Source of the DNA: a virus | DNA: 64,000 nucleotides | Virus record (IMG/VR): IMGVR_UViG_3300025789_000822 | Span: 24,464-88,463 of that record | Direction: 5' to 3' (one strand) | Shown: positions 3,982-49,003 of the stretch, piece after piece | Position numbering within the stretch: position 1 is the stretch's first letter | How the letters are laid out: each line of letters opens with the position of its first letter | Notes under the pieces: model-generated | Told to the model about the DNA's origin: nothing | What the model saw: only the letters and a program-made list of their open reading frames with translations | Database searches by the model: none | Position numbers and translations under genes: made by a program

Positions 3982-4464
3982 TCATTTAGTCTCAGTTTTT
4001 GCGCTGAGAACTCTAAGCAGTTCGTTGCGATCCAAAGACTTGCCTTCACCTAACGGGGTGTTTTCTATTTCTTCTGATTTAGCTGCCTGACGTTGATCCA
4101 ATGCGGCTTTCTTTAGTTGCAAATCAATCATCTTTAATTTTTTATTTAGTTTGGCAGTTTTTGCTGTGATTGCGTGTCCTAATAGATTACTAGCAACACC
4201 AAAGATTTCGCTACTAAATCTACTATCTACTTGCATACCTAAATCCATTAAATCTTTATAACTGCTTGTTGCTAGGTTGGCTAGTTCATCCATTTCAGTA
4301 TCAGCGGCTTCTAGTCCTCTGACTTGGGGTAATGCTGTTTCAATTTTTTCTAGATTACTAAGTGCTTCTGTAGTAATTTCTTGTGCAAATTCGGGGGTAG
4401 GCTTCGCCAAAGTGCTTATAACATCTTCAGGAAGCTCAAATAATTCTTCTAACTTTTTTGTAAT
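3982..4464 (-). CDS. Hypothetical coiled-coil late protein; probable ATT start at 4464
   Basis: Frame is open upstream of the track's 4410 start as ITKKLEELFELPED; AAGGAG lies 7 nt before the ATT. Confidence 0.6.
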   Translation of the reverse strand: MTKKLEELFELPEDVISTLAKPTPEFAQEITTEALSNLEKIETALPQVRGLEAADTEMDELANLATSSYKDLMDLGMQVDSRFSSEIFGVASNLLGHAITAKTAKLNKKLKMIDLQLKKAALDQRQAAKSEEIENTPLGEGKSLDRNELLRVLSAKTETK

Positions 4465-4465
4465 T

Positions 4466-5050
4466 TTAATTCTCCTTAGTAAACCATGTACGTTTACCGT
4501 TGACTAATTTCCATGATTTACCACGATTAGCATCACCGCATTTTAATGGATCACTTTGAATACGAATTCTGCGCTGTTCTTCTGCTAGGATTAAAGCTGG
4601 CGTTTTGGTTTTCTTTTTTCCTGTCATTCCTAATTTCATTTTTTCAATTCTTTCAGGAGTCCAACTAGCTTCTGAACTGCAAGAATTTTTTACAAAGTTT
4701 GATACCTCTTCTGGGGTCATTTTTGCTAATATTTCTTTTCTAGAATTACTTAATTTTTTTCTAGATTCAGTTGACCATGCACCACCGGGGCCAGCTTCCT
4801 CTGTTAAGTTAGCCCATTTATCACTTTCAACTACATTCCACAACTTACTATAATGCAATCCCCAATGAATCAATTCTTCTTCAGATTGGCATTCTTTAAT
4901 AATTTCAGTAGTTACATCATTCCCGTGTACTTTTAGATGATTGGTCCAATATGTGCCGGACCCAAGATATTTGTACGGATCTTTTGATAAAGTTTTACCT
5001 AGATATTGTAATCCGGTTTTATTGTGAGTCTTTTTATAAAGATATATCAT
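4466..5050 (-). mobile_element. Free-standing GIY-YIG (Seg-like) homing endonuclease gene
   Basis: N-terminal IYLYKKTH..TGLQYLGKT, YLGSG, NLT motifs; basic NUMOD-like C-terminus. Confidence 0.85.
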
Positions 5051-5063
5051 AGAAAGTATTTAG

Positions 5064-12703: not shown

Positions 12704-13498
12704 TTACCCTTGAATCCATGTCAACGGTTGACTGTAATCAACATATCGTTTCAATTCGTCAATTAACACTTCTTGTGCTTTAGAGCCTTCTGCTTTCATG
12801 GCAGTACCGTTCAATGTTGTGCCGCCACCCGGACCTGCAATGCTGCCGAACTTCTCACGTGCTTCACCAATAATAACTTTACATTGTGCTAAAATAAAGT
12901 CACCGATCCACACACCAGCGCCTGGGTCTTGTAGTAACACTGCTTCAGGGCGTTGCACATCTGCCCAAACAAGAATACGCTCACCTGAACCCTTGAAATC
13001 ACGTGTAATTCTAAGAACCTTAGTAACAGGATCAAATGTGTATGTCAAGAACCCACCAAACATACGTGCGGCTAATTCAACATAACCTGCATAAAAGTCA
13101 TATGTTGCCATACCACCTGTATAGTTATAGTTTAACAAATATGTGTTAAGAATAGCACTACTGAATGGGTCAAAACTGCTTGAACTTGGACCTGTTTCAA
13201 GACCAATACTACGTCTGAATAATTGTCTAACGTTAATAAATTCTTGAGGCAATGTGTAAGTGTCCACATTCTCAACAACTGTCATTAGTGTGTATGATTC
13301 TTGTGTGGCATTTTGTGCACGTTGACGATATACTTTGATAGCATAGTTATATGCGGCCTCATAATGCTCAGGATCAAGTTCCAAATCAATAATACCACCA
13401 CCTAAACGATAAGTGATGTTATTAAATAATGCTTGTTTTAATTCTTCTAAGTTATAACTAGTTGGTGTACTTAAATAACTGGCTGTGCTACTTGGCAT
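12704..13498 (-). CDS. Neck protein (T4 gp13-like)
   Basis: RLGGGIIDLEL, GEAREKF..IAGPGGGTTLNG..MKAE motifs. Confidence 0.75.
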   Translation of the reverse strand: MPSSTASYLSTPTSYNLEELKQALFNNITYRLGGGIIDLELDPEHYEAAYNYAIKVYRQRAQNATQESYTLMTVVENVDTYTLPQEFINVRQLFRRSIGLETGPSSSSFDPFSSAILNTYLLNYNYTGGMATYDFYAGYVELAARMFGGFLTYTFDPVTKVLRITRDFKGSGERILVWADVQRPEAVLLQDPGAGVWIGDFILAQCKVIIGEAREKFGSIAGPGGGTTLNGTAMKAEGSKAQEVLIDELKRYVDYSQPLTWIQG

Positions 13499-13530
13499 AA
13501 TAATCCCCTGTTGCTATTATTTATCAGGGA

Positions 13531-13944
13531 TTATAGGTCTCCATCTTTTCGGTTCTCGCTGTAAAATGCGTCAAACTGTCCACCGGGATATCGTGCCTCT
13601 AATTTTTTAACATTCTCAGCAACAACATCATTGGGATCAAGATTTAGTGCACGACATGCATTAACCCAGTACCACATAATATCACCCAATTCACGTTTCA
13701 TGTGAAAAATGTTTTCATCAGTTAGTGGTTTACCTTGAAAGAAAACCTTCTTGGGAATTTCAATAAACTCACCACTTTCAGCCGCAAGTCCTAAACATGC
13801 AGTCAATAGCAAACTAACATTTATATTAGTTGTATTACGCAGTTCAACGATGCGAGGTAAAAGGTGATCAAAGTTATTTGATTCTTTGCTGGTTACAGCA
13901 TTAACGAATTCGGTGTATTTGTTTAAATCAATATTTTGTGTCAT
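13531..13944 (-). CDS. mazG: MazG-like NTP pyrophosphohydrolase
   Basis: LGLAAESGEFIE..KK, RELGDIMWY, N..KL..RY. Confidence 0.85.
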   Translation of the reverse strand: MTQNIDLNKYTEFVNAVTSKESNNFDHLLPRIVELRNTTNINVSLLLTACLGLAAESGEFIEIPKKVFFQGKPLTDENIFHMKRELGDIMWYWVNACRALNLDPNDVVAENVKKLEARYPGGQFDAFYSENRKDGDL

Positions 13945-14677
13945 TGTTTGCCTTTATAAAATTGTATAGTTCGTCTGCATATAGTTGATGAGGGATATCA
14001 GAATGATGCCCGTATTTTGCCTTTGAATTAGTATATCCTAAATTTATATATTTGGGATAAAATGATTCGTTGTTGTTATTATAGTTGTAATACTTGCCTG
14101 TGTCAATACTATTCAAGTAAAATTTAAGATATTTTTCATTTTCAGGAGAAAACATGTGTATAGTATTACACATTAGGTAATCAATGTTTTTACTCTTAAA
14201 AAAATATTGCAATTGCAAAATTAAATTTGCACTGGTGATTTCTGTATAAGGTGTTTGGTTAATTACAAACCTACGATAATCTTCTTGTATGTTACGCTCA
14301 CGTTCAGAATAACCTGTATAGTTTACATTTATCTGCAAGAAATCAGTAGATGAATTAGAAAACCAATCACAGTATTTTCCATTCTGTTGTTGATGCCATG
14401 TTGGGTATTGAAATGGTGCTTCAATACGTGAACTCTCAGTCCAACCAACAACAACAAATAAGTCACTAGTATCATGCTCACTACAATATTCTAGGACACT
14501 CCTAGCAATTGCACTATTAGTGTAACCACTTACTGCAATATTAACAGGAGTATATCCTAATTTTTGTGCTAACAAATTACCATAACTATGTTGACGATTG
14601 AAGGGGCTGTCTACTTCCCCGTCAATTTCAGAACCAGCTGAGTGACTACACCCCGCAATTAAACATATTTTACTCAA
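13928..14677 (-). CDS. SGNH/GDSL-like hydrolase family protein
   Basis: GCSHS block I, NIAVSGYTN block II, C-terminal HH. Confidence 0.6.
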   Translation of the reverse strand: MSKICLIAGCSHSAGSEIDGEVDSPFNRQHSYGNLLAQKLGYTPVNIAVSGYTNSAIARSVLEYCSEHDTSDLFVVVGWTESSRIEAPFQYPTWHQQQNGKYCDWFSNSSTDFLQINVNYTGYSERERNIQEDYRRFVINQTPYTEITSANLILQLQYFFKSKNIDYLMCNTIHMFSPENEKYLKFYLNSIDTGKYYNYNNNNESFYPKYINLGYTNSKAKYGHHSDIPHQLYADELYNFIKANNDTKY

Positions 14678-15856
14678 TTAAAACGCCTTGAGAATAATCA
14701 TGTTGTCGTTGAAACGACCATTGGGTGATGTTGCAACAGACTTGATTTCTTTAAAGAACTTACGTGCCGCGGGCTTACTACCTGTAAGTGCCTTGATTTG
14801 TTCAGCGGGCTTACGTAGTGTTTTAACTTCACTTTGTTTGGGATCGAATCCTAGCAATGTGTTACCCTTAACTGTAAGTGTCTTGCTATATTCATCGGCA
14901 ACATAATGATGCATTTTACGTCTTGCTGTATCATAGACCCAAGCCTCATTACATTGATGTAGTTTAACAGGACTCAAACCAACCAAATCAACCTTTGTAG
15001 CATCATCCTTGAATGTTTTCAAGTGTTTCAGTTTGCTTACAATCTTTTCTACAGGTACTGCCTTGCGTTTGCGTGGTGCCTTGCTTGCCTTCTTAACACT
15101 TGCATAACCATTTAGATCGGCAATCACAGATTCAATGAACTTAATCATATAGCGAACCTGCATTTTGCTCATGTGAGCATAGGCTTCAACTAATTGTGCA
15201 TCTTTGCCAAGTTGCAATTCAGTAAATTCATTTAATACATTTTCCCAATGTTTAATAATTGGGGTAATATGTTGAGGTAAAATGTTGCGTTCGCCTAATT
15301 CTGAACTAACACGTTTTTTAGTTTCAAAGTCTTTGGGGTATCCTGCTAAACAGAATTCATCCATCAAGCCTTCTAATTCACCTGCGGCTTCACCTGCTTT
15401 TTCACGCATGATTTCCTGAATGTTCTTGCGTTCAACTTTAGGCTTATCATCTTCAATGACTTCATTTTTTTCTTCACCTTTACCCAATTGAACCAGTCGG
15501 TCGATCTGGTCGTCAAGCAACATTTTTTCACGCTCATTGAATTGCAAACCACGCAATGACAACCGTGCCATCCAACCCCAAGAGGTGTGCACTTTAGTGT
15601 CAGGGGCCTTTTTAACAAACTTGATTTTGTCTTTACCCTCGTTAGCCTCAAGATATTGAATCATAAAGTCTTTGGCATCAGGCTGTGAATAGAATCGTGA
15701 GTACCAATTAAATGCTTGTCCTAGTTGACCTTGCCGTTTGTCCTCTGCAGGTTGTGTTTCAAATAGTGGTTCAGAACCATAATATTGTGCATCAACATCT
15801 TTAGGTGTAAGGTCACGCACAAAAGAATGTGTTTGATAAGCGGGTTTGCGAGCCAT
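14678..15856 (-). CDS. Hypothetical early protein
   Basis: 392-aa ORF behind a sigma70-like promoter; KTLRKP motif. Confidence 0.65.
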   Translation of the reverse strand: MARKPAYQTHSFVRDLTPKDVDAQYYGSEPLFETQPAEDKRQGQLGQAFNWYSRFYSQPDAKDFMIQYLEANEGKDKIKFVKKAPDTKVHTSWGWMARLSLRGLQFNEREKMLLDDQIDRLVQLGKGEEKNEVIEDDKPKVERKNIQEIMREKAGEAAGELEGLMDEFCLAGYPKDFETKKRVSSELGERNILPQHITPIIKHWENVLNEFTELQLGKDAQLVEAYAHMSKMQVRYMIKFIESVIADLNGYASVKKASKAPRKRKAVPVEKIVSKLKHLKTFKDDATKVDLVGLSPVKLHQCNEAWVYDTARRKMHHYVADEYSKTLTVKGNTLLGFDPKQSEVKTLRKPAEQIKALTGSKPAARKFFKEIKSVATSPNGRFNDNMIILKAF

Positions 15857-15885
15857 AAAATCTCCATAGTTTCACGATATTTATA

Positions 15886-15914
15886 AGTATACAGCATATC
15901 CGATTTATTGTCAA
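15886..15914 (-). promoter_or_regulatory. Early sigma70-type promoter (TTGACAATAAAT class)
   Basis: TTGACA-17 nt-TATACT. Confidence 0.8.
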
Positions 15915-15949
15915 GCCGTTTGATCCAAAAAATTTCGATAAATAACTAT

Positions 15950-16024
15950 ATGCTTACTGATTCTAAATATAAAAAATGGTACTTCTCTATTAAATTGGCT
16001 AAAAAACTAGCCGTAGGAGTTTAA
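15950..16024 (+). pseudogene. 24-aa remnant of a probable HNH homing endonuclease
   Basis: MLTDSKYKKWYFSIKLAKKLAVGV; KY.KWY.SI resembles phage HNH N-termini; sits on TAAATA-N5-ATG and ends 1 nt before the next gene. Confidence 0.5.
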
Positions 16025-16025
16025 C

Positions 16026-17780
16026 GTGCCTAGGCTCAGCCTATACCGTCCAACGAAACAAAATGACTATCGATTTATGGATAGAACCATATCCGATATG
16101 TTAACTGCAGGTGGCACAGACTTATATATTCACAAATATCTAGGTCCTACTGATCAGGGGCCTAGTACTGACCCTACACAGCCACAGTATGCAGTTCAAA
16201 GTCCTACTAATATTCAAGACTTGTTATTCATGGAAAACCGTGATAGAACATATGATCCAAATATCTATAGATTGCGCGGGCATTACAATGTACAAAATCT
16301 TGACTTTGATTTAAGTCAGTTTGGTTTATTCTTAAATAATGATATCATTTTCGTCACTGTGCATTACAATGACATGATTGACATTATTGGTCGCAAATTA
16401 ATGGTTGGTGATGTATTAGAGTTACCTCACTTACTAGATTATAATCCATTAGATCAAACTATACCAGTTGCATTAAAACGCTTTATGCAAATTACTGATG
16501 CAAACTATGCAAGTGAAGGTTTCACACAAACATGGTACCCACATCTATGGCGTATCAAATGTGAACCTCTTGTTAATAGTGAGGAGTTTTCAGATATTCT
16601 TACACAACCTCTCAATCAAGACAATTATCTTGGTAACTGGGATAAGACAAAACCTTATCCAGAAGGCTATACTGTTACATTTGGTGGATTGATTTATAAA
16701 TCTTTGGCAGATGTTCCTGCAGGAACATATCCACCAAACGCAACATATTGGCAATTACAATCAAACGGTGGCCTTGCAGATATCATTTCTACATACAACA
16801 AGAATATTGCAATCAATGATGCTGTACTTGCTGATGCAGAAATACTTGTTCCTAAATCAGGTTACGATCAAAGTCAACTATATGTTGTACCTACATACGG
16901 CGAGTATGTTACCAACCAAGAAGGTAATACAGTTCCTTCAGGTCATTTGAATCAACCTGCACCACCTATCGGTGTACTTGCTCCTAATCCATTCGCAAAC
17001 TTCCCCAATATACCATCTCAGTTAGATGGCGCAAAGGTTGTAATATATCGCAATAGTAAGTTCAAGAATCCAAGTGTTGGTATTAAGGTTAGTAAGGCTG
17101 CATTAGCAAAACTACAAGACATGAATGGTGTCGGCAAGTATGTAGAAAATAAAATCAACAAACTTGTACAAGCACAATTATCATTAGCAGAGCAAGAACC
17201 TGAAAAGACAGCAGGTGGTAGTGGTCGTGTTGATAAGATTAAGATTCTCAAAGTAGAAACAATCAGTCCTATCATTATTGGACCATATGGTACTGCTGAC
17301 AACACATATGCTACAGCAGACCAAGACCCAAGTCTAGATAGTTTCACAGGAACGGTGACAAGTGTTATGGACTTTAGAGCAGACTGTGATCCAACATTCC
17401 AGTTTATCTCTAGATCGGCTCCAAGATCATTTGGTTATACAACTGGCTACATGACTGGTGATGGTAGTGCTCCAAATGGATTCCCAACAGGCGCAGGTAT
17501 TAGTTTCCCTGCAAATCCTACAGTGGGCGATTATTTCTTACGCATCGATTACTTACCTCAACTATTATATCGTTGGGACGGTAAGTTATGGATACAAATT
17601 AGCCAAAATGTCAGAACACAAACTGGATTTGGTAGTGTTGAAAATCAATCACAACTCTCATCATTTATTAATAACGATGCTCAAATTTATGTAAATAATG
17701 ATCAAGCAGTAATTCCTCAAGCACAACCATTGTCGAATGTACTACAGAATTCACCACCGACACTACCGCCGGTAATATAA
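16026..17780 (+). CDS. Neck/head-closure protein (gp14-like) with extra domains
   Basis: FDLSQFGLFL, GDVLELP, WRIKC motifs; precedes a gp15-like gene; GTG start. Confidence 0.65.
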   Translation: MPRLSLYRPTKQNDYRFMDRTISDMLTAGGTDLYIHKYLGPTDQGPSTDPTQPQYAVQSPTNIQDLLFMENRDRTYDPNIYRLRGHYNVQNLDFDLSQFGLFLNNDIIFVTVHYNDMIDIIGRKLMVGDVLELPHLLDYNPLDQTIPVALKRFMQITDANYASEGFTQTWYPHLWRIKCEPLVNSEEFSDILTQPLNQDNYLGNWDKTKPYPEGYTVTFGGLIYKSLADVPAGTYPPNATYWQLQSNGGLADIISTYNKNIAINDAVLADAEILVPKSGYDQSQLYVVPTYGEYVTNQEGNTVPSGHLNQPAPPIGVLAPNPFANFPNIPSQLDGAKVVIYRNSKFKNPSVGIKVSKAALAKLQDMNGVGKYVENKINKLVQAQLSLAEQEPEKTAGGSGRVDKIKILKVETISPIIIGPYGTADNTYATADQDPSLDSFTGTVTSVMDFRADCDPTFQFISRSAPRSFGYTTGYMTGDGSAPNGFPTGAGISFPANPTVGDYFLRIDYLPQLLYRWDGKLWIQISQNVRTQTGFGSVENQSQLSSFINNDAQIYVNNDQAVIPQAQPLSNVLQNSPPTLPPVI

Positions 17781-17789
17781 AGGTCATAC

Positions 17790-19166
17790 ATGGCAGCGCA
17801 ATATTTTTATGATAATCAGATACGCAGATTCTTAATACAGTTTGCCAAAATCTTTAGCAACTGGCAAGTTACCAGAGGTAACGATCCTGCAGGCAACCCT
17901 ATTTACGTTCGTGTGCCTATTATGTATGGCGATCAAAGTCGTCAGGCTGCAACTGTTGTTAATAATAACAGTGCAAGTACACTACCATCTGCACCAATGA
18001 TTACTTACTACATCAGTGGTTTGGAATACAATCAAAAATGGACTACTGATCCTACATTTATTGACAAGATTAATGTAAGGCAACGTGCATACAATCCTGA
18101 TACACAAAGCTATGAGACTACACAAGGTCAAGCGTTTACTATTGAAAGATTGATGCCTGTACCATATACATTGCGTATTAATGTCGATTTTTGGACAACA
18201 AACTATCAACAAAAATTAGAAATCATTGAACAACTAGGCCCATTGTTTAATCCTGCACTTGAAATTCAAAGTACAGATAACTTTGTTGATTGGACCTCAT
18301 TAAGTTCTGTGTTTCAAGATGGATTGACTTTTACTAGCAGACAAATTCCAGTAGGTACAGGTAATCCAATTGACATTATGACCTGGAAGTTTTACATGCC
18401 TATCTGGTTGACAACTGCAAGTAAGTTGAAAAAGATGGGCGTTATTCAAAAAATTATCATGTCTATCTATCAAGGAAATGCTCTTACAGATATCCAGAAT
18501 GATGATTTGTTGTTAGGTACTAGACAAAAGATTACTCCATATGGTTACAAGTTATTATACATCGGCAACCAATTACAATTACTACCTGCCGACGAACCAT
18601 TCGATCCGTCTAACAATAGTCTAGATCAAGATGTTTCTCCACCTACTGATTTGTATTGGTCTAGTTTATTAAACGTGTATGGCAAAGTTCAGCCGGGTAT
18701 TAGCCAGATTTGGTTAGAGAATCCATATATGGATACCCCTATCGTTGGTACTATTGTTCCTAATCCATTAGATGACAGATTCTTAATCTTTAACGTAGAT
18801 CCACAAACATTACCACAGAATACATTAGATCCAGTTAATGCTGTTATTAATCCACAAATGCAAGGCCCTAATGCAGGACTACCCGGGCCTATCAATGGTG
18901 TACGCTATTTGATTGTTGAAAATATTGGAGCACCTGATACTACAACAGTTGCTTGGGGTGGTCTAGTCGCAAATGCAAATGATATCATAGAATTTGATAG
19001 TGGTACAATGCAATGGTTTGTTGCATACGACAGTCAAGCAGATACAGAAGTACAATATGTGACTAATCTTGCAACTACTCTTCAATATAGATATACACCT
19101 GATGAAGGTTGGATGAAATCATATGAAGGTTTCTATTACGCCGGCGATTACAGTATCGTAATTTAA
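17790..19166 (+). CDS. Tail sheath stabiliser/terminator (T4 gp15-like)
   Basis: YFYDNQIRR...F, VPIMYG, PVPYTL, QKLEIIEQL.PLFNP. Confidence 0.8.
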   Translation: MAAQYFYDNQIRRFLIQFAKIFSNWQVTRGNDPAGNPIYVRVPIMYGDQSRQAATVVNNNSASTLPSAPMITYYISGLEYNQKWTTDPTFIDKINVRQRAYNPDTQSYETTQGQAFTIERLMPVPYTLRINVDFWTTNYQQKLEIIEQLGPLFNPALEIQSTDNFVDWTSLSSVFQDGLTFTSRQIPVGTGNPIDIMTWKFYMPIWLTTASKLKKMGVIQKIIMSIYQGNALTDIQNDDLLLGTRQKITPYGYKLLYIGNQLQLLPADEPFDPSNNSLDQDVSPPTDLYWSSLLNVYGKVQPGISQIWLENPYMDTPIVGTIVPNPLDDRFLIFNVDPQTLPQNTLDPVNAVINPQMQGPNAGLPGPINGVRYLIVENIGAPDTTTVAWGGLVANANDIIEFDSGTMQWFVAYDSQADTEVQYVTNLATTLQYRYTPDEGWMKSYEGFYYAGDYSIVI

Positions 19167-29977: not shown

Positions 29978-30394
29978 TTAAGCGCCGTAAACTGTAGTGA
30001 ACGTAGCTGCGTTTGTACCAGTTGTTGTGTTAGCAACTGAAGCTGAAGTCAAAGCTGCATTAACAGCAGCAACAACGTTGGCACCAGCTGAACCGTCTAC
30101 TGACCAAGCACCTGTTGGATATGTTGCGAATGCAAATGTATCTGAAGTTGTGTTTGTATATTCGTAGATATAGATTGTTGCCAATTGTTGAACTGTTTCA
30201 ATGATAACGTTAGCTTGTGTAGCACTGAAGTGTGTACCTGAAGCGGCCGTAATTGTCATGAAGTCTAGTTTTGGACCTTGTGGTTGAACAACGTAACCAG
30301 AATCGATTGCGTTAACACCTGGGTTTGTGTAACCAGGGTAGTCTAAGTTGAATACTGGATAGAAGTCACCGTTCGTGCGTGTAAATTGTGCCAT
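29978..30394 (-). CDS. Probable abundant small virion protein
   Basis: Own TAAATA promoter, hairpin leader, RBS and terminator; A/T-rich 138 aa. Confidence 0.55.
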   Translation of the reverse strand: MAQFTRTNGDFYPVFNLDYPGYTNPGVNAIDSGYVVQPQGPKLDFMTITAASGTHFSATQANVIIETVQQLATIYIYEYTNTTSDTFAFATYPTGAWSVDGSAGANVVAAVNAALTSASVANTTTGTNAATFTTVYGA

Positions 30395-30477
30395 TTTTGA
30401 AAATTCCTTAATGTTTGTTGAAGCCTACTGCTTCATACATTTATTTATGCCTGGCACAAAAAAATGATGGTTTTGGA

Positions 30478-45142: not shown

Positions 45143-45181
45143 GTTTATAGTATATCAGTTAGTGCTATGTTTGTCAACATA

Positions 45182-48715: not shown

Positions 48716-48753
48716 ATTTAGCCTTTCGTGTGTGTTAATCAATCAATACAAGT

Positions 48754-48782
48754 ATTATAGCACCGAACCCATTTATTGTCAA
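48754..48782 (-). promoter_or_regulatory. Early sigma70-type promoter (TTGACAATAAAT class)
   Basis: TTGACA-17-TATAAT. Confidence 0.85.
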
Positions 48783-49003
48783 GCCTTGAGGATCTCAACA
48801 ATACGACTATGGATGATATCCATTTCTGCCTGCTCAACATAAAAATCAGTAGTGGGGTCATAGTATTGACCCTCTTTGTTGTCATAATACAACACACGAC
48901 CGCTAAAATTGAAAGGACCTTCTAGACCTTTGCGAGGACCGTACTTCAAACGCATTTGATCCATCTGTTGTTTATCTGCAACAACTTTGTAACCCATAGA
49001 CAA
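48779..49003 (-). CDS. Hypothetical early protein
   Basis: GLEGPF, LYYD.KEGQYYD..TDFY. Confidence 0.65.
   Translation of the reverse strand: MSMGYKVVADKQQMDQMRLKYGPRKGLEGPFNFSGRVLYYDNKEGQYYDPTTDFYVEQAEMDIIHSRIVEILKA

Follow-up and report, generated by a model that had tools for sequence, protein, structure and literature searches.

A short reading frame at the start of a giant-phage virion gene, probably the remnant of an HNH homing endonuclease gene

Introduction

Why does a virion gene of a giant phage start with GTG, one nucleotide (nt) behind the stop of a 24-codon open reading frame (ORF) that almost none of its relatives possess? This question is raised by a 64,000-nt stretch of viral DNA (in the following, the window), which comprises bases 24464-88463 of the 88-kb IMG/VR virus record IMGVR_UViG_3300025789_000822. 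CheckV assigned a completeness of 23% to this record, which thus represents part of a giant phage genome. A distant relationship links its virion genes to those of Atu_ph07, PA5oct and Rak2-like phages, and Logan indexing located the sequence in freshwater metagenomes. An earlier note on this DNA took the short ORF for an internally deleted homing endonuclease gene, the two ends of which were kept because the downstream gene had come to depend on them. The best explanation for the locus as a whole is that a homing endonuclease gene invaded the start site of the virion gene, was gutted by a deletion, and left behind the Shine-Dalgarno (SD) sequence and the GTG from which the virion gene is translated. 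We consider this history highly probable.

Start region of the virion gene

The layout described before, a TAAATA-N5-ATG that opens an ORF of 24 amino acids (aa), with AGGAG in its last codons and its stop 1 nt before a GTG, was found as claimed. TAAATA occupies 15939-15944 and is followed by the 5-nt spacer ACTAT and the ATG at 15950-15952. The translation of the ORF is MLTDSKYKKWYFSIKLAKKLAVGV, its stop TAA lies at 16022-16024, and a single C (16025) separates this stop from the GTG at 16026. The region is composed of the following elements.

15938-15944, + strand: ATAAATA, late-promoter-like and native to the virion gene; CGATAAATA is kept at this position in nearly all of 78 relatives
15950-15952, + strand: ATG at which the virion gene originally started and at which the remnant ORF now starts; directly followed by CCN-A/CGN (P-R/K-L-S-L) in 68 of 78 relatives
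15950-16024, + strand: 24-codon remnant ORF, stop included, derived from an HNH-NUMOD3 homing endonuclease (codons 1-14, 208-217 and stop of the gene at L179:6226-6879)
15950-15992, + strand: 5' arm, endonuclease nt 1-43 with the TA microhomology at its end; 42 of 43 nt as in L179
15991-16028, + strand: 3' arm, final 10 endonuclease codons, TAA, C and GTG; 38 of 38 nt as in L179
15953-16028, + strand: 76-nt insertion relative to the empty allele, from the alignment with L002 and 67 other empty alleles
16015-16019, + strand: SD sequence AGGAG, 6 nt 5' of the GTG and within the final remnant codons, read from the sequence; the intact allele has the same bases

A TAG at 16014-16016 closes the frame of the virion gene upstream of the GTG, which is thus the only usable start of this gene. 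The insertion lies between the old ATG and codon 2, so that the old ATG and the virion gene are no longer in the same frame. A stop-to-start gap of 1 nt together with an SD sequence inside the upstream ORF is the geometry of a translationally coupled gene pair.

The short ORF itself contains no catalytic HNH core (His...Asn...His), as residues 15-207, with HHILPKCLGG...DNLVNLTAREHFICH, are missing. The 24-aa peptide had no match at E <= 10 in a tblastn search of 50,697 phage records, and when the insert was searched by blastn and tblastn in the 88-kb genome and in the first 80 related loci, only the insert itself was returned.

Empty and leadered alleles in relatives

Relatives of the virion gene were collected by scanning IMG/VR with its 584-aa protein, and the best 80 of 560 matches were used. 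Allele counts refer to the 78 of these 80 loci in which the start of the gene lies on the contig. L-numbers denote contigs from IMG/VR or from Joint Genome Institute (JGI) metagenomes, whereby L067, L178 and L269 are one contig, and L179 is the same as L270.

The empty allele that had been predicted, CGATAAATA-N4/5-ATG-CCN, was present in 68 of the 78 loci, with a spacer of five nucleotides in 62 and of four in six. Counted by distinct haplotypes, the N5 spacing occurred in 42 of 52. None of the 68 empty alleles contained an SD sequence, and the encoded protein opened with MP(R/K)LSL(Y/W). Five loci (L021-L024 and L060) carried an additional 11-nt AGGAGAATAGT between the promoter motif and the ATG, which gives an SD-led start. 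A 32-nt leader with an ATT start was found in three loci (L066, L068 and L069), and a 27-nt leader in one. The arrangement of the window was seen in a single relative (L067); the 24-aa ORF is missing from the other 77.

The 11-nt AGGAGAATAGT leader of L021-L024 was considered as a further endonuclease scar. This was not supported, as the same sequence is a generic ribosome-binding site in front of many unrelated genes, and no endonuclease-bearing allele ending in AGGAGAATAGT was found. The 32-nt leader of L066, L068 and L069 ends with TAAGGAGATCCAAAATT, of which 14 of 17 bases are identical to TAAGGAGAATTAAAATT, the 3' end of a GIY-YIG-like cassette located elsewhere in the window (4462-4478, minus strand). 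By this sequence likeness, the leader may be what an earlier, different endonuclease left behind at the virion gene. In PA5oct, gene gp320 (L266, 3975-4003) has ATAAATA, a 19-nt leader TAGGAGTTTAT and then ATG. Ten bases of this leader, TAGGAGTTTA, are identical to the scar end at 16014-16023; this match may be due to chance, or a native SD leader, belonging to the virion gene of another phage, may have given rise to the 3' end of the endonuclease.

Intact endonuclease gene at the same site

A full-length HNH allele had also been predicted. It was found with a degenerate DNA pattern (back-translated KYKKWYFSI) in IMG/VR and JGI metagenomes: five contigs from different samples (L179, L181, L183, L184 and L272) carry an intact 217-aa HNH-NUMOD3 ORF at the identical site and with the same junctions, L272 having been contributed by the metagenome scan. 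The ORF reads MFTDSKYKKWYFSIIENAKNR...HHILPKCLGG...NLVNLTAREHFICHWLL...KANKLAKKLAVGV. CGATAAATAACTAT-ATG stands in front of it, and at its other end TAA-C-GTG-CCT-AGG-CTC-AGC-CTA-TAC-CG opens the homologue of the virion gene. With 68 empty alleles, five contigs with the intact gene and one scar lineage, the locus thus displays a presence/absence polymorphism at one conserved site.

The 217-aa protein of L179 reached 46.8 bits for NUMOD3 (cut-off 20.4) and 20.2 bits for HNH, slightly below the cut-off of 21.4, which was exceeded by the family members L092 (22.7) and others in G001-G003. The columns HH, N and H are invariant in the family alignment, and the 217-aa protein has the motif HH..P..GG...N..LT..EH..CH. 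The full-length allele of L179 therefore combines the HNH core with the DNA-binding module typical of the PF01844/PF07460 family. Seven HNH genes from four large relatives share an N-terminus M-F-x-x-N-K-Y-T-K-x-Y-x-x-x-I-x-x-A-x-x-R in front of HHIIPxSLGG, and the window peptide aligns with it; the N-terminal pattern of the family is M..(N)KY..WY..I...A..R. More than 560 members were counted in IMG/VR. They are abundant in related giant phages, many stand directly behind TAAATA-N5-ATG, and the N-terminus, HNH core, NUMOD3 and C-terminus are contiguous in them.

Many HNH copies (L096-L112 and other HNH loci) share 30-70 nt of upstream sequence including their own TAAATA-N5-ATG. The same copies share the 3' end GCA-TAA-ATA-CAATATCTCAACGGGATGGGAAG, in which the stop overlaps a TAAATA motif, and such cassettes seem to bring along a late promoter for whichever gene follows.

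Deletion and lateral origin

The two arms of the remnant were compared directly with L179, since a three-way MAFFT alignment had placed the 5' arm wrongly across the deletion. The window ORF consists of codons 1-14 fused to codons 208-217 of the 217-aa gene, with 80 of 81 positions identical (42/43 and 38/38) and TTT to CTT in codon 2 as the sole difference. Judged by this comparison, the 81-nt match to the ends of an HNH gene is not due to chance. The likeness to HNH N-termini pointed out earlier hence reflects true homology, and the element proved to be internally deleted, as both arms match the intact gene. The outcome named beforehand as speaking against this idea, no HNH similarity and the same leader with GTG in all relatives, did not occur.

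The deletion comprises 579 nt or 193 codons (15-207) and is in frame; its junction, TCTAT[TA]AATTG, shows a 2-nt TA microhomology. All catalytic and DNA-binding parts were removed by it, and tblastn of the intact protein against the 88-kb fragment detected the two remnant arms only. The remnant is continuous in sequence with both ends of the intact element and has the same flanking junctions, as expected for a degenerate stage of this element.

Across the flanks on either side, the window shares 66-100% identity with its closest relative, L002, which has an empty allele, and 17-87% with L179. The exceptions, which match L179, are the 15 bases before the ATG (-15..0) and the first 23 bases from the GTG (+1..+23).

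16026-16048, + strand: downstream tract with donor-type markers (GTG CCT AGG CTC AGC ...); at five of five marker sites, within the first 12 nt, it agrees with L179 and not with L002

Here, the window and L179 read GTG CCT AGG CTC, whereas L002 reads ATG CCA AGA TTA; the changes in codons 2-4 are synonymous. From +24 on, the window follows L002. The donor-type tracts are bounded by blocks that are identical in the window, L002 and L179, namely CGATAAATA and AGCCTATACCG. Because the window is L179-like only in these very short flanks and L002-like elsewhere, the element entered an L002-like backbone laterally. JGI freshwater samples with neighbouring numbers yielded both the contigs that carry the intact gene and those that carry the scar, so phages with the endonuclease and phages with the scar appear to share a habitat.

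Proposed mechanism

Sequence comparison established three allele states, their breakpoints, a lateral origin and the presence of an SD sequence and a start inside the remnant, and these would fit into the following history. A free-standing HNH-NUMOD3 homing endonuclease gene would have invaded the start site of a late virion gene that lay 5 nt past an ATAAATA late promoter motif and whose mRNA probably had no leader and began at the AUG. The endonuclease would have adopted this AUG as its own start, and its 3' end (AGGAG, TAA, one base and GTG) would have supplied a translation start for the displaced virion gene. Later, in the window lineage, 579 nt would have been lost in frame between sites sharing TA only, which left the 24-codon ORF. 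The old start would be of no use to the virion gene, as it lies 76 nt off in another frame and runs into a stop, and the SD sequence and GTG of the remnant would be used instead. Ribosomes loading at the 5'-terminal AUG would come to the end of the 24 codons one base short of the GTG and would probably boost initiation there by termination-reinitiation.

The 3' arm holds the only SD sequence and the only start, and the virion gene therefore depends on it. As regards the other steps, we infer that transcription starts at the AUG, that the 24 codons are translated and that their translation is coupled to that of the virion gene. Late transcription in T4 starts about 6 bases past the late-promoter motif, and with the same spacing, the start would fall on the A of the ATG at 15950. 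By this analogy, a leaderless late mRNA would begin at A15950. The geometry fits a leaderless model, since the spacing is fixed (62 of 78 loci), the SD sequence is missing from empty alleles, and ATAAATA-N5-ATG occurs at five sites in the window with 0.75 expected, several of which precede large late genes. In Rak2-like jumbo phages, ATAAATA has been described as the putative late promoter, and it is similar to the late promoter of T4, TATAAATA (PMC5259590). For termination-reinitiation at the GTG, it is the geometry of stop, SD sequence and start that suggests it. In openly accessible full texts on homing endonucleases and on leaderless mRNA or translational coupling, no description of start-codon capture at leaderless genes was found.

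Several points weigh against this history or parts of it. Scans of IMG/VR and JGI metagenomes yielded no intact gene on a window-like backbone, so that the deletion could have happened before or after the transfer. No RNA run was among the listed holders of the sequence in the Logan index. The leader does not fold significantly (z = -1.03) and the SD sequence is unsequestered; coupling is thus not needed for its exposure, and independent SD-led initiation could suffice. The remnant is also young, with one change in 81 nt, and is known from one phage lineage only. At a divergence of one base, it bears no signal of purifying selection, and a deletion would be in frame by chance in one of three cases even without selection. 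As to the claim that the ends were kept because the gene depends on them, such dependence follows for the 3' end, with its SD sequence and sole start, whereas the 42 nt at the 5' end may persist merely because the deletion ended there.

Alternative explanations

The deletion origin might be the same and the 24-codon ORF inert, with the virion gene being translated by independent SD-led initiation at the GTG. In favour of this, no structure covers AGGAG, which stands at the ideal spacing of 6 nt, selection would not yet be visible in so young a remnant, and plain SD leaders without an upstream ORF serve the virion gene in L021-L024, L060 and the PA5oct homologue. However, the deletion kept the frame, so that the stop remains 1 nt 5' of the GTG, and the upstream AUG has the context of the gene's own AUG in 68 relatives, so that ribosomes should load at this upstream AUG and go on to reach the GTG. 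We would put the chances of an inert ORF at somewhat less than even; this estimate is conditional on the shared origin, concerns the coupling step only, and is not exclusive of the history proposed above.

The remaining alternatives question the origin itself. That the 24-aa ORF is a genuine small gene or a regulatory leader peptide might be suggested by its start in a good promoter context and by a stop-start layout typical of coupled genes. It is nevertheless very improbable, given that the ORF is missing in 77 of 78 relatives, is made of the two ends of a 217-aa endonuclease found at the same site elsewhere, and has no second copy or homologue in the phage collection or the 88-kb fragment. 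An ancestral short form, from which the 217-aa gene arose by a 579-nt insertion, is just as hard to defend: two sequences alone do not give the direction of change, but a large family (> 560 IMG/VR matches) with contiguous parts includes the long form at full length, whereas the short form has no counterpart elsewhere. Least credible of all is a collapsed or chimeric contig, and hence an artefact of assembly, even though repeats can cause mis-joins in metagenome assemblies. No repeat longer than 2 nt is present at the junction. The scar is also carried by the separately assembled IMG/VR contig L067/L178/L269, which agrees with the window at 99.92% identity from 13298 to 17165. The scar junction is spanned with 0 differences by Logan contigs of four freshwater runs, one of which may be the source of the window. 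On these sequence data, the scar allele is real and no artefact of assembly. The endonuclease invasion and in-frame deletion proposed above thus remain the preferred account of the origin.

Downstream virion gene and neighbouring genes

The gene behind the scar and its neighbours are as follows.

16026-17780, + strand: conserved virion structural protein of 584 aa with a GTG start (phrog_11591, match at 1.7e-81)
17790-19166, + strand: next gene, gp15-like tail sheath stabiliser (Pfam T4-gp15_tss, 1.2e-21)
14678-15856, - strand: divergent neighbour of 392 aa (phrog_11903, PHROG match), which forms the left edge of the intergenic region

Homologues of the 584-aa protein align from residue 1. Its N-terminus is conserved from residue 2 on (PRLSLYRP), and the first 225 aa show a mean column identity of 87% among 15 diverged relatives. 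According to its annotation, the PA5oct homologue gp320 was detected in virions by electrospray ionisation tandem mass spectrometry (ESI-MS/MS). The earlier label of this gene as gp14-like was not confirmed. No Pfam family was assigned at E <= 0.1, and no PDB match was obtained by single sequence or by profile. The AlphaFold2 model (predicted local distance difference test, pLDDT, 36.9) was unusable, and in the protein Atlas, the protein falls only into unnamed viral clusters. A neck or tail-proximal role is suggested by its place before the gp15-like gene and by the virion status of the PA5oct homologue.

Upstream, a GTCAA(G/C)C stands about 20 nt 5' of CGATAAATA in nearly all relatives (L002-L081), even in those with a different upstream gene. 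In the window (15857-15920), it is the reverse complement of the TTGACA-N17-TATACT promoter of the divergent gene, which also has TATAAATA, and the region may be a shared bidirectional control element. Farther to the left, contig L178 (1-1378) is unrelated to the window left of 13298. This break lies within a 264/272-aa gene (12704-13498, - strand) and reflects either mosaic recombination of co-occurring phages or a chimeric assembly.

Parallel and look-alike sites

A parallel with another site of the window, 4462-5062 (- strand), had been drawn on account of the order stop, 1 nt and non-ATG start, and TAA-A-ATT was indeed read there. The site holds a 194-aa ORF with a GIY-YIG-like N-terminus behind TAAATA-N6-ATG, and it ends with AAGGAGAAT-TAA-A-ATT, of which ATT is the start of the next gene. 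As 78 of 80 relatives (L186-L265) have the empty form TAAATA-N5/6-ATG-ACN-AAA at this next gene, a start-site capture of the same kind is indicated. In front of the same target gene, L160 and L168 carry a member of the HNH family with the ending AAGGAGAA-N5-ATT, and in L235 and L254, the target gene starts with GTG. Taken over both target genes, the occupied or leadered alleles (window 16026 and 4462-4464, L179, L235, L254, L066, L068, L069, L160 and L168) start with GTG or ATT and nearly all empty alleles with ATG. The non-ATG starts could confer immunity to cleavage, could be a property of the 3' module of the element, or could tune expression.

A third candidate scar at 30394-30448 (- strand) was rejected, as all 16 relatives examined there (L274-L289) keep the same leader. 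It consists of TAAATA-N5-ATG and a hairpin at the very 5' end (e.g., GAAGC-AGUAG-GCUUC) with compensatory changes across the 16 relatives, followed by the SD-led ATG of a 138-aa gene; in L278, an upstream mini-ORF ends TAA-A-ATG. This site is a conserved structured leader.

At 45143-45180 and 48743-48790 (- strand), sigma-70-like promoters (TTGACA-N17-TATACT or TATAAT) lie about 6-12 nt from a start codon without an SD sequence. Leaderless starts may thus occur among early genes as well.

Relation to known systems and significance

A life cycle of homing endonucleases from invasion through degeneration to loss is well established, and for the intron endonucleases of yeast a cyclical model of invasion, fixation, degeneration and loss has been described (summarised in Edgell et al. 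2010, PMC2988022). The window locus resembles this cycle in that empty, intact and degenerate states exist at one site and that the element was gained laterally with very short donor-type flanks. Unlike the elements of that model, it is free-standing, borne neither by an intron nor by an intein, and lies at the start codon of a probably leaderless gene. Its complete loss is blocked because the translation signals of the virion gene lie inside the element. As to the protein family (PF01844 and PF07460), the intact allele of the relatives has the core and NUMOD3 repeats, whereas the window ORF has neither and is a descendant rather than a member.

Phage endonuclease genes generally cluster beside essential genes (PMC10055350). 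In T4, insertions of seg and mob genes moved promoters of essential genes into endonuclease coding regions, as with segG and gene 32, and retention of the endonuclease gene was favoured since deletions that remove the promoter are harmful (PMC2988022). Here too, an insertion displaced the signals of an essential downstream gene and brought replacements in its own coding region. However, the embedded signal of the window is translational (SD sequence and start) rather than a promoter, and a natural deletion derivative keeps the two ends only. In phage Aeh1, the insertion of mobE created sequences that have turned into indispensable tails of the split NrdA (Crona et al. 2011, PMC3045599). Both cases have in common that a sequence born from an insertion is now needed by the interrupted essential gene. 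In Aeh1, it provides protein tails for the assembly of a split enzyme and the endonuclease is intact, whereas in the window, it provides an mRNA leader and the endonuclease is deleted. Translational coupling through adjacent stop and start codons is known from T4 genes 44 and 62 and from UAAUGA in nrdA/mobE (PMC2988022). The window shares with such pairs the stop 1 nt before the next start and the SD sequence within the upstream ORF. It differs in that the upstream ORF is a functionless remnant, probably at the very 5' end of the mRNA, where coupling is suggested by the arrangement of the codons. The window case is thus the known logic of retention moved to the level of translation, with a minimal deletion survivor in addition.

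The finding provides a complete natural series of alleles (empty, intact and gutted) for one homing endonuclease in uncultivated phages of a shared habitat, with breakpoints and donor-type flanks resolved to the single base. The minimal survivor consists of the capture of the start site at one end and a ribosome-binding site with a start codon at the other. The three allele junctions can be used as markers of endonuclease invasion and decay in time-series metagenomes of lakes. Beyond this locus, one may speculate, with considerable doubt, that two endonuclease families (HNH-NUMOD3 and GIY-YIG-like) have specialised in capturing the 5'-terminal AUG of leaderless late genes and bring along a portable module of SD sequence plus non-AUG start that outlasts the decay of the endonuclease; odd leaders such as the 32-nt leader with ATT in L066, L068 and L069, and perhaps AGGAGAATAGT in L021-L024, would then be older scars. 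The window locus offers a concrete route by which selfish elements could turn a leaderless gene into a leadered one, and if the wider idea is true, endonuclease traffic would repeatedly have moved essential virion genes from leaderless to SD-led translation.

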